Positions 17,786 to 62,404 of a stretch of 64,000 bases of DNA are shown here, one piece after another. Each line of letters opens with the position of its first letter. Position 1 is the stretch's first letter. The notes below the pieces were generated by a model, which saw only the letters and a list, made by a program, of their open reading frames with translations, did not search any database and was not told the DNA's origin. Source of the DNA: a virus. The position numbers were made by a program, and so were the translations under genes. The stretch is taken from IMG/VR virus record IMGVR_UViG_3300045988_079349; one strand, 5' to 3'.

Positions 17786-17833
17786 CATTTAACTTTCTAT
17801 AAATATTATAATATATTTTTTATAAAATATCAA
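17786..17833 (-). promoter_or_regulatory. sigma70-like promoter with conserved downstream block (class 2)
   Basis: minus strand TTGATA-17nt-TATAAT followed by ATTTATAGAAAGTT about 25 nt before the ATG; one of about 17 similar copies. Confidence 0.5.
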
Positions 17834-17845
17834 AAGATTTTTATT

Positions 17846-18733
17846 TTAAATCTCAACTGGTTGAATTAGTTCTTCAATATAAGTCCTACCTTCATCTTTG
17901 AATAGAGGAATATTAAGGTCAATAAACCAATAGTGTTTAAAATGAATTGAGCCATCTTCTCTTTCCGTTTCTTCGCAGTCTTTTATACAACAAGAACCTC
18001 TCTTCAAATAGGTCGGTAGACTATTCCAATCTATCCCCTTTTTGGAAATAAGCATCTCTAAAATTTCACTACTGCACTTACCCTGAAGTTCACTATGAGA
18101 AAAATTTGCTTGACCAACCATTTGAATAGAATTGCGAATGGCATCTAACTGTCGCCAGTAAATGAGATTTGTTACCTCTTCTTTTGGGATATTAAAAACA
18201 CGTGCATCAAACATAGCACCTTTTGCGCTTGCCATCCGTAAAGTTTTCATATATTCTTGATGTTTCTGTCGGATTTCTACACTTTGCGGAGTTAGAGAAC
18301 ACTTCCAATCAACTTCGTATGCTTCAATCGCTCGATGAAAAGCTTTATTAAAAGCCATTGTCGCCATAGATGCTGCAACAGAGCACATCTTTTGAACTTC
18401 GTAGTCAAACCACGCTTCACTATTTAATTTCTTGTAATCAACAAGAATTAGAGTTATTTCATCACTTTGTGTATATCCAAGAACACATCCTTGAATATTT
18501 CTGCACAAATACTCTGTAGTTTCTTGCATAGCTTCAACTAACACTTCGTCAAATGGTTTTTTAAATCCTTTAGTGAAGGTATGAAATGCTTTTCCATCAA
18601 TTCTAATTGCTACTGGAGTTCTGCGCATGAGGCGAGTTTTAGGTACCTGTTCATAAAACTCCTTCATACGAGTATCAAGTTGGTCATTCATACTGTTTAT
18701 CCTCCATATCAACCATAAAAATATGCTCGTCAA
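17846..18733 (-). CDS. Thg1-like protein (tRNA-His guanylyltransferase family / tRNA 5-prime end repair)
   Basis: RIDGKAFHTF and GYTQSDEITL resemble Thg1 motifs (RLDGRNFH, AYGQSDEYS). Confidence 0.55.
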   Translation of the reverse strand: MTSIFLWLIWRINSMNDQLDTRMKEFYEQVPKTRLMRRTPVAIRIDGKAFHTFTKGFKKPFDEVLVEAMQETTEYLCRNIQGCVLGYTQSDEITLILVDYKKLNSEAWFDYEVQKMCSVAASMATMAFNKAFHRAIEAYEVDWKCSLTPQSVEIRQKHQEYMKTLRMASAKGAMFDARVFNIPKEEVTNLIYWRQLDAIRNSIQMVGQANFSHSELQGKCSSEILEMLISKKGIDWNSLPTYLKRGSCCIKDCEETEREDGSIHFKHYWFIDLNIPLFKDEGRTYIEELIQPVEI

Positions 18734-19418
18734 AGGTATCGAGATTTAAGAGAACGGTTTGTCCAGTAAAGAAACTGCCACAATCAATATTTACCTTATG
18801 GTCATTGCAGTACCAAAAAGCACCCTCAACATAAGAGTCTTCTCTCGCTCCAAAGAAATTTTTTAGACTTCCTCTATAGCCTCTAATCATACCGGGGATA
18901 GGAGTATGTCCATGAACACAGATAGTATTATTTTCATAGTAAGTATCCCAAATATGTTCTCTATCCCAGATTAAATCTCTTGTATTTGGATTAGAACCTG
19001 CTGTAAGCCCTGCATGACAAAGAGCTATTTTAACATCGTCTTTATTGCAGTATTCCATATAAGTAGGTAACTTACTTAAATAATTACACCAATCAGGGTT
19101 CGCACCATCACTTATCCAACCTTCAAAGGTGTCTTTCCCTCCATTAAAACAAAGCAAAGCACAATCTCTGTCGAAACATTCATACTTCGCATATTCTCTC
19201 ATTGCATTGACAAGCATATCTTCGTGATTACCCTTGATGTAGATAAATTGCGGATCTGCGGCAACTGCTTTAATGGTTTCCCAAGGATCAGGTCCCCGAT
19301 CGCCGCAATCGCCCAGGCAATAAACTTTATCTTCTGGTTTTAAAAATTTCTTTACCTCTTGATAAAGACATAACATACCATGAAGATCACTAATAGCGTA
19401 TACGCTCACTTTAATCAC
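18684..19418 (-). CDS. Ser/Thr phosphatase-family metallophosphoesterase
   Basis: GDCGDRGP and GNHE motifs (lambda phosphatase-like). Confidence 0.7.
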   Translation of the reverse strand: MIKVSVYAISDLHGMLCLYQEVKKFLKPEDKVYCLGDCGDRGPDPWETIKAVAADPQFIYIKGNHEDMLVNAMREYAKYECFDRDCALLCFNGGKDTFEGWISDGANPDWCNYLSKLPTYMEYCNKDDVKIALCHAGLTAGSNPNTRDLIWDREHIWDTYYENNTICVHGHTPIPGMIRGYRGSLKNFFGAREDSYVEGAFWYCNDHKVNIDCGSFFTGQTVLLNLDTFDEHIFMVDMEDKQYE

Positions 19419-19481
19419 TTCCTTTATTATATTATACCATAATAAAATATAAAAATAAAGAGAGCGTAAAGCTCTCTTTAT

Positions 19482-20204
19482 TTAAAAGAAGGGACAGATT
19501 GGCATTTCCTCTGTTTTATGTAGGTTTCTCTTGTGTCTCTGCTCAATATTTTTATATACTTCATACGGAGGAGTAATACGATATAGCAAAAAGTTATCAA
19601 GAGTTTTATAAGAAAAACCTAGATTCTCTTCATCTGAGAGTCCAGTTAATCCATCTTCTGGAACTTTTTCTATAAATTTCTCCGGTAGACCAAGTTCTAA
19701 ACCAATCTCTTTAACTTCTGTTACTGTGTAATTGTGCAGAATTGAAAAATCTCCCGCGGAATCACCAAATTTGGTTGAATAACCAACATAATTTTCACTT
19801 CTATTACAAGTGTTTGCAACTCTACCATGTCGAGCAGCCGCGATGGCATAAAGAATATTCATTCTTTCTCTTGCTGGAACGTTACTTACAACTTGAGGAA
19901 GATTACGAATATCAGAGGGTAGGGAGAAAAAAGTTGCTTTGCAAGCCTCTCCAATGTTGATATTATAATGTTCTTTAATGCCTAGATACTCAATAACTTC
20001 ATTTGAAATATCAATGTCTGATTGATACCCTTGTGGCATTTGAACTGCAATTACATTTTCTGGCCCAATAGCTTTACAAAGCAGTGCGGCAGCGACAGTA
20101 GAATCTTTTCCTCCAGAAATACCAATAACAGCTTTGCAGTCCGGGCCGTTGTCGATAAAATATTTTTTAATCCAGTTAATGATTCTTTGAACTCTTATTG
20201 TCAT
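19482..20204 (-). CDS. nadE: NH3-dependent NAD+ synthetase
   Basis: PP-loop GISGGKDST. Confidence 0.85.
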   Translation of the reverse strand: MTIRVQRIINWIKKYFIDNGPDCKAVIGISGGKDSTVAAALLCKAIGPENVIAVQMPQGYQSDIDISNEVIEYLGIKEHYNINIGEACKATFFSLPSDIRNLPQVVSNVPARERMNILYAIAAARHGRVANTCNRSENYVGYSTKFGDSAGDFSILHNYTVTEVKEIGLELGLPEKFIEKVPEDGLTGLSDEENLGFSYKTLDNFLLYRITPPYEVYKNIEQRHKRNLHKTEEMPICPFF

Positions 20205-20209
20205 AAGAT

Positions 20210-60784: not shown

Positions 60785-61225
60785 TTAGCCAATTCTGCGG
60801 TAAGCAGAAAGCTTCTTGCTTTTTCCACCCTCGCTAGAGGCAGGAACACTCACAGTCTCCTTCACAACACGGTTAACCTCAGGAGAAGCGAGCTGAGTCA
60901 GACGTGCAGTTACCATCTGAGCAGAAATGTCCTCGTCGTTCAGAGCCTTTACAATGTCACTAATGGTCATAGGCTCATCGGTAAGGACATCATAAATCTT
61001 CTCGCGAAGAGCATCTCCCTCGACCTTCTTAGCAGCAGCTCTCTTAGCGGCAGCAGCGGCCTTATTATCAAGGAGCTCAACCTCATGCTCAATGAACTCG
61101 CGCAGACTATCATAGGTAATCTCTGTGGACTCGAGAACGAGACCCTCGCCTTCAGCGGCGGACAGAATGCTCAAAATAGCATTATAATTGGCTTTCTTAG
61201 TGGGCTTCTTTACAGTGTTAGACAT
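60785..61225 (-). CDS. hypothetical protein
   Basis: 146 aa ORF. Confidence 0.5.
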   Translation of the reverse strand: MSNTVKKPTKKANYNAILSILSAAEGEGLVLESTEITYDSLREFIEHEVELLDNKAAAAAKRAAAKKVEGDALREKIYDVLTDEPMTISDIVKALNDEDISAQMVTARLTQLASPEVNRVVKETVSVPASSEGGKSKKLSAYRRIG

Positions 61226-61305
61226 AAATTAATCAATTCCTCTCTTGTTTTATTGTATTTATATTATATGATATTTTTTGAGTAGAGTCAAGAAAATTTC
61301 TTGGA

Positions 61306-61614
61306 CTATGAGACACAATGAATTGCATACCATGCAAATTCTCGTGTAACGCCGAGTTCACGGAGAATATTTTCCACTTTATCCATTTCGGGAATGATTT
61401 CAGGAAGCGCAATCTTTCTAGCTGTACCTTCCTCAATAGCGCCGCCTATTTCAACACCGATGACAATATCGCTAGCATCAGTATAACAGTCGGCTATGTG
61501 AATAAAATTACAATTTGTATCCCGAAATTCATCATCCTTTTGATTAAGAATGTTAATTTCATTCTTATCAAGAAGAACTCCGTAGACTATTTCGGTGCGA
61601 TAATCAACGCTCAC
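61306..61614 (-). CDS. hypothetical protein
   Basis: 102 aa ORF; class-2 promoter 61634..61676. Confidence 0.5.
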   Translation of the reverse strand: MSVDYRTEIVYGVLLDKNEINILNQKDDEFRDTNCNFIHIADCYTDASDIVIGVEIGGAIEEGTARKIALPEIIPEMDKVENILRELGVTREFAWYAIHCVS

Positions 61615-61860
61615 TACAAGAAATCTCCTTTCTCACTTTCTATAATTATTATAACTTATTTTTTTGTTTTTTGCAAACCGATTTCTTGAACTGATGTGGT
61701 AATTAGATTGCCAATTCTCTGATTATAGTAAGAATACAGTTGACCAACCAACAAACTGCTGTGACACTGTTTAATACTTTAACAGTCTTTCCGTCGGCTA
61801 AAGCAGCCAAAACGAAGAACGATGCAGACATAAGAGCGTAAAGAACAATCAATAGGATAC

Positions 61861-62343
61861 TCATTTCATTTTCACCCACTCTTTCGCTCTTGCTTTTTTA
61901 TCCAATAGGGTAGACAAATCCGCAGGCTTCTTCATATGACGGTCATCTCCATCGCGGAATTCGTCCCATCCGAGCAAGAGATACTTCAGATGATTAGGTG
62001 CATCATCAGGGAAAGTATCAGTCGAAGCGATATACCAACCAATCCCTACGGCATATCGAGCTACGGATTCCCGCAGCCAATCTTCATCTGCGGCTTTGTT
62101 GCCACGAATTACAAGGATAGGGCCATTATCAAAGCCTCTTGCGTGCTTCAATCCGTCATATCCTTTATCAGTATCTACGATTTTCTTACCATATGCTTTG
62201 GCGAATTCAGCTTCAGAATACCAACGAACATCTCGATGATTTTTGGTATTGGGGTGTTCTACAGTCACATAATACTTACCATTTTTAATGAAAGGCTCTT
62301 CACTGATACGCTTATAGGATTGAAAACTAGGAGCAACAGGCAT
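61861..62343 (-). CDS. hypothetical protein
   Basis: 160 aa ORF; class-2 promoter 62361..62404. Confidence 0.5.
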   Translation of the reverse strand: MPVAPSFQSYKRISEEPFIKNGKYYVTVEHPNTKNHRDVRWYSEAEFAKAYGKKIVDTDKGYDGLKHARGFDNGPILVIRGNKAADEDWLRESVARYAVGIGWYIASTDTFPDDAPNHLKYLLLGWDEFRDGDDRHMKKPADLSTLLDKKARAKEWVKMK

Positions 62344-62360
62344 AATTTAAACCTCCTTAA

Positions 62361-62404
62361 CCACTTTCTATAATTATTATATCATTATTTTTTAATTTTT
62401 GCAA
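62361..62404 (-). promoter_or_regulatory. class-2 promoter (TTGCAA-17-TATAAT + AATTATAGAAAGTGG)
   Basis: Same architecture as 17786..17833, 37354..37396 and 61634..61676. Confidence 0.5.

Follow-up and report, generated by a model that had tools for sequence, protein, structure and literature searches.

The DNA analysed here (the window) is a stretch of 64,000 nucleotides from the virus record IMGVR_UViG_3300045988_079349, and it carries a family of repeated promoter cassettes in which a -35 box, a -10 box and a conserved block immediately downstream are held in fixed register ahead of open reading frames (ORFs) and tRNA genes. The window encodes gyrase A and gyrase B, DNA and RNA ligases, PhoH-PIN, RNase H, a 5'-3' exonuclease-like protein, ThyX, UDG, Thg1 and a polynucleotide-kinase-like protein, together with RlaP, an NAD synthase, an NAPRTase, several metallophosphatases, homing endonucleases, 30 tRNAs and a tmRNA. 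These genes mark it as that arm of a large virulent phage which is devoted to replication, nucleotide metabolism and tRNAs, and the cassettes, all 30 tRNAs and the gene set lie on the same (minus) strand. A megablast search with 12.5 kb of the window against INPHARED recovered tRNA matches only and no close cultured relative at the nucleotide level. Near-identical and 70-88%-identical relatives were found as IMG/VR contigs of 105-147 kb and as contigs binned with Oscillospiraceae and Eubacterium metagenome-assembled genomes (MAGs), IMGVR_UViG_3300045988_075249 (133 kb), CALWOP010000177.1 and CALCFD010000051.1 being examples of relatives, and the host is probably a member of the Clostridia.

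Ten near-identical copies of the cassette were found on the minus (coding) strand, all following the pattern TTG(A/C)AA-17 nt-(TGn)TATAAT-A(T/A)(T/A)-TATAGAAAGT(T/G)-purine-rich Shine-Dalgarno (SD) sequence-start codon. These core sites are named after the coordinate of their -10 boxes (62381, 61653, 56170, 54880, 50645, 45497, 37373, 36657, 27733 and 17810) and are listed with the other members of the family in Table 1. The pattern TATAATNNNTATAGAAAGT, allowing up to 2 mismatches, gave 13 matches in the window, on the minus strand only, as against 0.19 +/- 0.44 in 100 dinucleotide-preserving shuffles of the window, which rules out chance or AT-rich low complexity as the origin of the family. 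A nhmmer profile built from the ten core sites and run on the window retrieved 5 further sites at E<0.01 (15 in total) and 20 sites in total at E<0.1, again on the minus strand only. A first-pass annotation of this DNA had described a stereotyped promoter family shared by about 17 genes, citing ten examples of a principal class (class 1) and three of a second class (class 2). All of these examples exist at the positions given and on the minus strand, the canonical elements and the excess over shuffled sequence uphold the family as such, and the 15-20 sites found with the profile make its gene count a fair one. Seven of the cited class-1 sites show the full architecture (62381, 61653, 50645, 45497, 37373, 36657 and 17810), the others being 27733, with its exact block and weak -35 overlapping a terminator T-tract, and the degenerate copies 24085 and 30710. 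Two full copies, 56170 and 54880, were additional to the earlier list.

The anatomy of the cassettes is uniform. The -35 box reads TTGNNN at 9/10 core sites, matching TTGACA/TTGAAA at 5-6 of its 6 positions, and only a T-tract takes its place at 27733 and in the degenerate copies. The -10 box is a perfect TATAAT at 17/17 listed sites, and the spacer measures exactly 17 nt wherever a -35 box exists. A TGn extension was found at 5/10 core sites and at all copies with a weak -35. The resulting window consensus is TTGAAA-17-aTGa-TATAAT-ATtTAT-AGAAAGTTaAGGAAAGGA, and conservation among the paralogous promoters extends from the -10 box to about +20 (ATtTATAGAAAGTTAAagAA; the same script returned AtaTttataAATT.a.gaga for phage T5). 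Counted from the predicted +1, the initially transcribed sequence (ITS) is purine-rich on the non-template strand, with AGAAAG at +1 to +6 followed by the purine-rich SD. Between paralogues, the hexamers and the block have stayed the same and the spacers have drifted apart, and the same was seen in the orthologue of the 50645 site in the relative L187, which retains the -35, the -10, the block and the SD but has a diverged spacer. Leaders predicted to begin at the A of TATAG reach the start codon after 15-46 nt (median 27-28 nt), in agreement with the earlier placement of the block about 25 nt upstream of the ATG. Many cassettes adjoin the T-tract of a preceding terminator.

Table 1. Members of the promoter family in the window, and genes of the tRNA-repair and NAD-salvage region
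Feature	Coordinates	Strand	Elements and downstream genes
Class-1 cassette	62362..62404	-	-35 TTGCAA 62399-62404, TGn and -10 TATAAT 62376-62381, block TATAGAAAGTG 62362-62372, predicted +1 A 62369; ORF 61861-62343, leader 26 nt; terminator hairpin directly upstream
Class-1 cassette	61634..61676	-	-35 TTGCAA, -10 61648-61653, block TATAGAAAGTG; GTG start 61614, leader 27 nt
Class-1 cassette, absent from earlier list	56151..56193	-	-35 TTGAAA, -10 56165-56170, block TGTAGAAAGTT; RNase H/exonuclease-like ORF 55240-56130; terminator hairpin upstream
Class-1 cassette, absent from earlier list	54861..54903	-	-35 TTGAAA, TGn, -10 54875-54880, block TATAGAAAGTG; small ORF 54635-54844
Class-1 cassette	50626..50668	-	-35 TTGAAA, -10 50640-50645, block TATAGAAAGTT; ORF 50327-50602, then tRNA-Lys
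Class-1 cassette	45478..45520	-	-35 TTGAAA, TGn, -10 45492-45497, block TATAGAAAGTT; ORF 45264-45458, then tRNA-Val
Class-1 cassette	37354..37396	-	-35 TTGCAA, -10 37368-37373, block TACAGAAAGTT; 46-nt A-rich leader, ORF 36980-37315, then tRNA-Ser
Class-1 cassette	36638..36680	-	-35 TTGACA, TGn, -10 36652-36657, block TATAGAAAGTT; 15-nt leader to ATG 36630; unit runs into suppressor tRNA(CUA) 36133-36207
Class-1 cassette, weak -35	27714..27756	-	TTTATT (T-tract of upstream terminator hairpin), TGn-extended -10 27728-27733, block exact; ORFs 27523-27693 and downstream
Class-1 cassette	17791..17833	-	-35 TTGATA, -10 17805-17810, block TATAGAAAGTT; polynucleotide-kinase-like ORF 17263-17769
Degenerate member	24066..24108	-	terminator T-tract TTTAAT at the -35 position (weak -35), TGn-extended -10 24080-24085, block TATATAAAGGA; ORF 23510-24049
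Degenerate member	30691..30733	-	terminator hairpin and TTTATT as weak -35, TGn-extended -10 30705-30710, block TATATAAAGGA; ORF 30355-30666
Marginal member, profile E=0.07	33492..33534	-	-35 TAGACA, -10 33506-33511, block AATAGAAATAA; ORF 33211-33474 and vault-like gene
Degenerate member, profile E=0.0075	486..528	-	-35 TTGATT, TGn, -10 500-505, block TATATAAGATT; terminator hairpin upstream
Class-2 (tRNA) promoter	55211..55253	-	TTGAAAAACAATAAAAAATATTGTATAAT, block TATGTGAGTTG; 67-nt leader, then tRNA-Ile(tat) 55059-55153
Class-2 (tRNA) promoter	54606..54648	-	class-2 -35 and spacer, block TATATAAGGCA; leader, then tRNA-Asn 54457-54533
Class-2 (tRNA) promoter	53843..53885	-	class-2 -35 and spacer, block TATACAAGGTT (2 mismatches to class 1); ~180-nt leader to tRNA-Ala 53598-53673
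Polynucleotide-kinase-like	17263-17769		
Thg1 tRNA-His guanylyltransferase	17846-18691		
NAD synthase	19482-20204		
NAPRTase	20210-21799		
PRPP-synthetase-like	22694-23506		
RNA ligase	25091-26365		
RlaP	28630-29427		

The block belongs to the promoter and to the transcript start, and not to a translational module of the untranslated region (UTR) or ribosome-binding site (RBS), since it is always coupled to a -10 box, is absent at promoter-less genes and precedes tRNAs, long leaders and coding sequences (CDS) alike. In the window, the motif AGAAAGTK in an RBS context was accompanied by a -10 box in register in 8/8 cases, and the block was absent from all of the approximately 60 promoter-less internal genes. 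Its independence of what lies downstream was equally evident among 196 non-redundant full sites elsewhere, which were followed by a short-leader CDS (78), a long-leader CDS (61), a tRNA (17) or nothing recognisable within 200 nt (40), with a median leader of 29 nt over all CDS-type sites. A translational enhancer is ruled out by the same observations, the block never occurring at promoter-less internal genes and preceding tRNAs in other phages. A structured 5'-UTR element was likewise rejected for the window, where the class-1 leaders are unstructured and fold no better than shuffled sequences (z from about 0 to +2), and a scan of the leaders with Rfam at gathering thresholds returned tRNAs and a tmRNA only, with no other known RNA family. 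The earlier suggestion of a shared 5'-UTR element thus holds in so far as the block is predicted to be transcribed, corresponding to the discriminator plus the first ~8 nt of the RNA, but not as a UTR element, given its tie to the -10 box, its absence at promoter-less genes and its presence before tRNAs and non-coding leaders.

The position of the transcript start could be predicted from those sites at which the block is paired with an ACTTTC arm (n=25). Complementarity stopped at the G (17 sites) or the A (7 sites) of TATAG, reached T(-1) once and never extended further. As selection for pairing acts only on transcribed bases, the 5' end would fall on either the A or the G of that motif, at the canonical distance of 7-8 nt past the -10 box. 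The register also matches that of the T5 promoter P_N25, whose +1 we take to be the A of ATAAATTTGAGAGAGGAGTT, and the T5 consensus register agrees with the P_N25 +1 position.

The class-2 promoters are a real, lineage-restricted paralogous subfamily of the same promoter type, serving tRNA transcription units. The class-2 29-mer TTGAAAAACAATAAAAAATATTGTATAAT occurs three times, once as a variant, with -10 boxes at 55230, 54625 and 53862, and its core and register equal those of class 1. The copy at 53862 lies within 2 mismatches of the class-1 pattern, and two class-2 copies score E<0.001 with the class-1 profile. All three stand ahead of tRNA blocks, as the first-pass annotation had stated, two of them via structured leaders and the third ~180 nt before tRNA-Ala. 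The leader at 55230 folds with -19.3 kcal/mol (z -2.4), its 5' end pairing with the sequence just before tRNA-Ile, and that at 54625 forms a long-range stem AAGGCAGA/TCTGCCTT before tRNA-Asn (-14.3 kcal/mol, z -1.8). The 21-mer comprising the class-2 -35 and spacer was found in 12 IMG/VR stretches, and about 6 close relatives carry it, together with the block variants TATRYRAGGYW, at orthologous positions before the tRNA-Ile, tRNA-Asn and tRNA-Ala blocks; at three otherwise identical class-2 copies ARAGORN called no downstream tRNA in the stretch examined. Class-1 promoters also lie upstream of tRNAs, behind small ORFs, at 36657 (tRNA(CUA)), 37373 (tRNA-Ser), 45497 (tRNA-Val) and 50645 (tRNA-Lys). 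The second, simpler class of the earlier description is therefore genuine and kept in close relatives, but it is a paralogous subfamily for which there is no evidence of a different recognition mechanism. The class-2 spacer (55231-55247, 53863-53879) contains a 5-bp inverted repeat, CAATA-N5-TATTG, intact in 2/3 copies and in most relatives, which could be a small operator or a chance feature.

Further promoter-like sites were noted in the window. At 21828-21861, 19407-19463 and 25030, a terminator T-tract is followed by TGnTATAAT(ATAAT) with no block (e.g. atatgtTATAATataataaagaaataaggaaaggaag), and these extended -10 promoters, devoid of a -35 and of a conserved ITS, may be weaker or differently timed. 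Two strong promoters stand back to back at 60518-60625, one on the minus strand (TTGACG-17-TATAAT, -10 at 60523) and one on the plus strand (TTGACA-17-TGtTATAAT, -10 at 60591). Downstream of the latter, the only consensus promoter on the plus strand, come an SD and a small hydrophobic ORF, which seems to be the window's sole gene on that strand.

The distribution of the cassette was analysed with the 20-mer TATAATAWWTATAGAAAGTK, a search pattern that contains neither the -35 nor the downstream purine tract. In IMG/VR it matched at least 120 stretches of viral contigs, for most of which the link is to Clostridia of the gut or rumen. Among the matches listed there were 142 sites, almost all of which are preceded by TTGAnn at exactly 17 nt and followed by a purine-rich tract, at loci with G+C contents of 26-49%. 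Register specificity was also apparent when sites were collected independently of the block: of 431 TTGNNN-17-TATAAT sites in the listed viral loci, 118 had TATAGAAAGT (up to 2 mismatches) in register, compared with 2 in a control register. The consensus of these 431 unselected sites, TTGAca-17 with aTaTGa-TATAAT, is that of the Gram-positive TRTG/-16 element, aTaTGaTATAAT. A scan of bacterial genomes with the 20-mer gave 126 matches, of which 74 have a -35 and are phage-like, mostly in MAGs or isolates of Clostridia (Oscillospiraceae, Lachnospiraceae, Acutalibacteraceae, Erysipelotrichaceae and others). The remaining 52/126 have no -35 and look like chance occurrences, many in non-Clostridial bins, and serve as a control.

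When the cassette was compared with deposited phages by BLAST, two groups were recovered. The first consists of Firmicutes phages with an identical block in the same register: Enterococcus phage VRE9_4 carries TTGACA-17-TGaTATAAT-aat-TATAGAAAGTT-aagaaaggaa...ATG, and Staphylococcus phage Twillingate (Sepunavirus) carries TTGACA-17-TATTAT-aat-TATAGAAAGTT-aagaaaggaa...ATG right after a terminal-repeat 'Tre' early gene. Both share the leader TATAGAAAGTTAAGAAAGGAA with the window. In cultured phages the exact block was found at 1-6 places per record, compared with 10 sites in 45 kb here. That one exact ITS word is common to many uncultivated gut phages and to a few cultured Enterococcus and Staphylococcus phages is a modest surprise, and no description of such a motif was found in literature containing the literal TATAGAAAGT, among the matches listed. 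The second group consists of hundreds of T5-like phages with TTGCTT-17-TGaTATAAT-att-TATATAAATTTGAGAGAGGAA...ATG.

The early promoters of T5 (P_N25, P25, P26, P28 and P207; about 35 are annotated in NC_005859) have the same layout and register as the window cassettes, namely a -35 box, 17 nt, a TG-extended TATAAT, an AT-rich 6-nt discriminator, +1 A, a conserved ITS, a GAGAGGA/GAAAGGA SD and ATG. A consensus drawn from 27 annotated T5 promoters (NC_005859, 1-50000) reads TTGCTt-17-cTG-TATAAT-AtaTtt-ATAAATTgAtGAGAGGA. The parallel extends to the organisation of the T5 early region, with its single coding strand, tRNA cluster, small ORFs, homing (HNH) endonucleases, stable RNAs and overlapping terminator-promoter pairs. 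T5 promoters likewise stand directly ahead of tRNA blocks, and the T5 block either leads directly into a tRNA (P15b) or is paired with a downstream complement in a 5' hairpin that precedes RNAX (P16-17), as in sites of the window type. In contrast, the ITS differs (AGAAAGTT in the window, ATAAATTG in T5), as do the preferred -35 (TTGAAA/TTGATT against TTGCTT) and the host, apparently a Gram-positive anaerobe here and an enterobacterium for T5, and the A-rich -43 'AAAT' block of T5 has no equally clear counterpart at sites of the window type. Descent from the T5 lineage (Demerecviridae) was rejected, as only 2/75 window proteins matched T5 1-50 kb, an RNase H at 40% identity and a weak phosphatase. 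Thus the cassettes, by analogy, would work like T5 early promoters, but they are not classed as T5 promoters and the phage is no T5 relative.

Early promoters of Kayvirus provided a second comparison. In vB_SauM-515A1, 58 early promoters were mapped by RNA-seq, with the consensus TTGACW-17-TRTGN-TATANT (PMC7698491). These sigma-A promoters share the -35/17/TRTG/-10 core with the window but have a different downstream word (AAAGGTATA-like), which rules out a universal Firmicutes-phage ITS and indicates that conservation of a transcribed region is a general feature, its exact word being specific to the lineage.

Taken together, the cassettes are best interpreted as promoters that would be read by the primary-sigma (sigma-A/sigma-70 type) RNA polymerase (RNAP) of the host, most likely driving the early (pre-replicative) genes and the tRNA genes in a large virulent phage whose host is Gram-positive, and we assign this reading a probability of roughly 0.7. 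To judge from their sequence, they are very strong host-type promoters with conserved first transcribed bases, a T5-early design that is real and tidy but ordinary in kind. As such, T5-type early promoter cassettes with a conserved ITS in an uncultivated Firmicutes phage clade is a better description of them than the earlier one.

On this interpretation, the cassette would be a host primary-sigma promoter optimised at every step. The elements in their fixed register, a -35 of TTGAnn, a 17-nt spacer often ending in TRTG/TGn, a perfect TATAAT and an AT-only 6-nt discriminator (ATWTAT), would direct the start to the A (or G) of TATAG, giving a Y(-1)R(+1) step with G at +2. A T-free purine run A-G-A-A-A-G would then occupy +1 to +6, mostly followed by a strong GAAAGGA-type SD and by a start codon some 27 nt into the transcript. 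The TGn-extended -10 would compensate at sites whose -35 position is taken up by a terminator T-tract. The block ATTTATAGAAAGTT would therein combine the discriminator and the ITS, and it most likely serves to speed up open-complex formation, to fix the start site and to make promoter escape efficient. A contribution to escape is likely because the equivalent region of T5 early promoters has been shown experimentally to make one. The native purine-rich N25 ITS escapes fast, while the pyrimidine-rich antiDSR variant yielded about 10-fold less full-length RNA and raised the escape half-life from 3 to 45 min (PMC12464699). In a screen of 262,144 variants, slow escape was marked by T's within the first ~7 nt and by TG at +5/+6, and escape was aided by stable RNA/DNA hybrids and purine stacking and, on lacUV5, by G+2 (PMC5961368). 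The block carries G at +2, and no T occurs between +1 and +6.

Several points weigh against this interpretation. Use of the host RNAP, early timing, the identity of the polymerase, the exact +1 and the escape function of the block are all inferred, on the premise that the same anatomy implies the same function. The escape rules derive from E. coli RNAP, and the Firmicutes enzyme may differ. The window covers 64 kb of a genome of ~130-200 kb, so that a phage sigma factor or RNAP-modifying protein could sit elsewhere, and as promoter sites were charted in these 64 kb only, the late and structural regions lie outside the chart. The different downstream motif of the Kayvirus early promoters implies that host RNAP alone does not dictate the exact sequence, and the exact 11-mer is kept across phages with 26-49% G+C, beyond what a generic need for a purine-rich, T-free start would require; an additional sequence-specific constraint on the block may thus exist. 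Finally, the orthologue footprint, with 92% identity in the block against 71% in CDS, is inflated, as the loci were fetched by the block itself.

In one alternative, the block would be the operator or recognition site of a phage-encoded protein, whether an early-shutoff repressor, an activator, a sigma appropriator or a phage sigma factor. The preservation of the exact 11-mer across many diverged phages exceeds what generic promoter optimisation needs, and the visible 64 kb contain many small early ORFs of no known function. However, no sigma, RNAP or helix-turn-helix regulator domain was found in the scanned ORFs of the window, and the block has neither dyad nor direct-repeat symmetry. The -35 and -10 boxes are canonical at 17 nt, whereas factor-dependent classes (T4 middle/late, SPO1 middle/late) replace or lack one of them; the late promoters of Kayvirus, for example, have a long -10 and no -35 (PMC7698491). 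Furthermore, an identical block is present in Herelleviridae of Staphylococcus and Enterococcus, which share little gene content with this phage. We consider a dedicated phage protein very unlikely. The first-pass annotation had proposed a phage-factor-dependent promoter class, and this is disfavoured by the canonical -35/17-nt spacer/TRTG/-10 core and the lack of a sigma or RNAP domain among the scanned ORFs, as well as by the occurrence of the block in unrelated phage families (VRE9_4, Twillingate) and by the T5 counterpart, which is read by unmodified host RNAP.

The block could alternatively be conserved mainly for its role as RNA at the 5' terminus, where it would govern how stable the transcript is or how ribosomes dock on it in a Firmicute, an explanation we regard as rather unlikely. 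Known 5' mRNA stabilisers of Bacillus include the cryIIIA STAB-SD, the SP82 polypurine sequence and 5'-terminal stem-loops such as the aprE leader, and AGAAAG is complementary to the 16S rRNA 3' tail CUUUCU-3' of Firmicutes, the ideal Gram-positive SD being AGAAAGGAGG. AGAAAG at the predicted +1 to +6 could thus act as a 5'-proximal 30S docking site or stabiliser. The two T to G differences between the block and the T5 word within +1 to +6, at +2 and +6, are exactly those that create AGAAAG, and at site 36657, with its 15-nt leader, the block is the sole SD-like sequence at workable spacing, the leader being identical in the 84%-identical orthologue in L002. In its polypurine SD-like sequence or hairpin at the very 5' end, and in its Firmicute context, the block resembles the Bacillus stabilisers. 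Unlike them, it is complementary to 16S rRNA over 6 nt, also stands on tRNA precursors and is known here from sequence. Six nucleotides of purine complementarity are weak evidence, the T5 block is just as conserved with no complementarity to E. coli 16S rRNA, and tRNAs, for which ribosome docking plays no part, are preceded by the block just as well, which argues against an RNA-level function as the sole explanation.

A second version of the RNA-level explanation concerns decay. The block is paired at 6 or more of its 8 nt in a 5'-terminal hairpin at 41-47% of the long-leader and tRNA-first sites compared with 19% of the short-leader sites, with an overhang of at most 1 nt, and the mean number of paired block nucleotides at the former is 4.0-4.5 as against 2.3-2.9 in shuffles. 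Substrates of BsRppH must have 2 or more unpaired nt at the 5' end and G as their second nucleotide, and G2 is counter-selected in B. subtilis (PMC3997798). If +1 is the A, these rules would make the unstructured early mRNAs preferred RppH substrates with a programmed short life and leave the hairpin versions protected. The unstructured class-1 leaders of the window accord with this, but G2 would then favour RppH attack over the protection that the Bacillus stabilisers afford; the stabilising and destabilising versions predict opposite effects and hinge on whether +1 is the A or the G. In the hairpin cases, moreover, the block is constant and the complementary arm variable, which shows that the block is constrained by something besides pairing. 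In a further reading, the exact 5' A-G-A-A-A-G-U might be a sequence-specific '5'-end code' common to early transcripts of many Firmicutes phages of unrelated families and read by host machinery other than RNAP, which we think unlikely. If it were true, the readers could be the CUUUCU tail of 16S rRNA or RppH with its need for G at position 2, unstructured early mRNAs would be marked for rapid turnover or 30S capture, and transcripts that start with a tRNA or a long leader would avoid this fate because the same sequence is hidden in a hairpin at their 5' end.

Finally, the cassettes might be mainly mobile or recombinogenic units whose identity is kept as homology patches that shuffle small genes between co-infecting phages. 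The promoter-early-stem-loop (PeSL) cassettes of T4-type phages, in which a terminator-like hairpin followed by a strong early promoter is repeated between small ORFs, provide a precedent. Many cassettes of the window similarly combine a terminator hairpin with a promoter and, in a region of mosaic make-up, flank small ORFs; alignments of relatives with the window are broken into many separate pieces, and near-identical cassettes occur in phages otherwise diverged in sequence. However, alignment breakpoints in 8 partial-locus relatives lay within 120 nt of a promoter in 17% of cases compared with 10% at random, and these were mostly promoter-to-promoter cross-hits, so that no convincing enrichment of mosaic junctions was seen at the cassettes. 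The divergence of paralogue spacers around constant hexamers and block also indicates selection on function and not homogenisation by copying. This explanation is most improbable, and we retain host-read, T5-like early promoters as the preferred interpretation.

No new mechanism is revealed, but the motif marks, precisely and with strand specificity, where transcription units begin in gut and rumen phages of a large clade that is for the most part uncharacterised, and its Gram-positive TRTG promoters and GAAAGGA SDs give a signal of host phylum. The old lesson of T5, that a promoter includes the first transcribed bases, now holds for uncultivated Firmicutes phages as well. The ITS word that became fixed varies with the phage lineage (AGAAAGT here, ATAAATT in T5, AAAGGTA-like in Kayvirus), and this variation forms a natural comparative data set on promoter escape and 5'-end fate; the cassettes also offer ready-made strong promoter-plus-RBS parts for the engineering of Clostridia and other Firmicutes.

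A number of further features were noted in the tRNA-bearing part of the window. The tmRNA is encoded at 47289-47619 (-), inside the tRNA cluster, with an Rfam score of 71.6 bits against a gathering threshold of 47, and its region is 89-96% conserved in the relatives L163 and L187. A recurrent pre-tRNA leader was found at 54534-54634, 44826-44966, 36208-36300, 42483-42520, 54997-55058 and 45640-45727, and in L076, L153, L173, L182 and L224. It consists of a 7-9 bp stem (e.g. AAGGCAGA...TCTGCCTT, AGACGCA...TGCGTCT or AGACACT...AGTGTCT) with a loop that opens with (t)ACAGCAA. Its 3' arm ends a few nt before the tRNA, ...TATAT precedes nearly every tRNA 5' end, and the element may be a processing signal. 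Long, GC-richer spacers of 100-316 nt between tRNAs (51222-51537, 48793-49088, 44388-44504 and others) harbour fragments that resemble the acceptor and T arms of tRNAs, such as GCCGGCCGCAT...ATGCGGCCGGC with GGTTCGATTCC. At 44388-44504 Rfam called a 117-nt tRNA that ARAGORN missed. These spacers recall the 'tRNA-like stable RNAs' of T5 or may be intron-containing tRNAs.

TAG is apparently read as a sense codon, and a tRNA(CUA) suppressor (36133-36207, minus strand) lies downstream of the class-1 promoter 36657. ThyX (2984-3610) is split by in-frame TAGs, the ORF 2984-3241 matching positions 117-191 only of the Thy1 profile. The endolysin (lysozyme plus amidase) has 10 in-frame TAGs, and two GIY-YIG and two Cys-repeat/DUF2726 nuclease-like genes have 6-11 each. 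Besides 2984-3610, the regions of these TAG-containing genes are 12010-13419, 3891-4577, 49089-50000, 56278-57225 and 24132-24995. Most core genes and the ORFs directly behind class-1 promoters are TAG-free.

A vault-like protein of 811 aa, with a major-vault-protein shoulder and repeat domains, is encoded at 30773-33208 (-). The adjoining gene (33588-35111, minus strand) encodes a DUF2828/DUF7788 protein that is annotated as 'RNA-binding protein' in phage Tsamsa and is ~40% identical to proteins of Tsamsa-like Bacillus siphophages, and both the vault-like and the DUF2828 genes are kept in many related viral loci. Finally, the region 17263-29427 holds a dense set of tRNA-repair and NAD-salvage genes (Table 1), which also includes metallophosphatases and is typical of counter-defence cargo.

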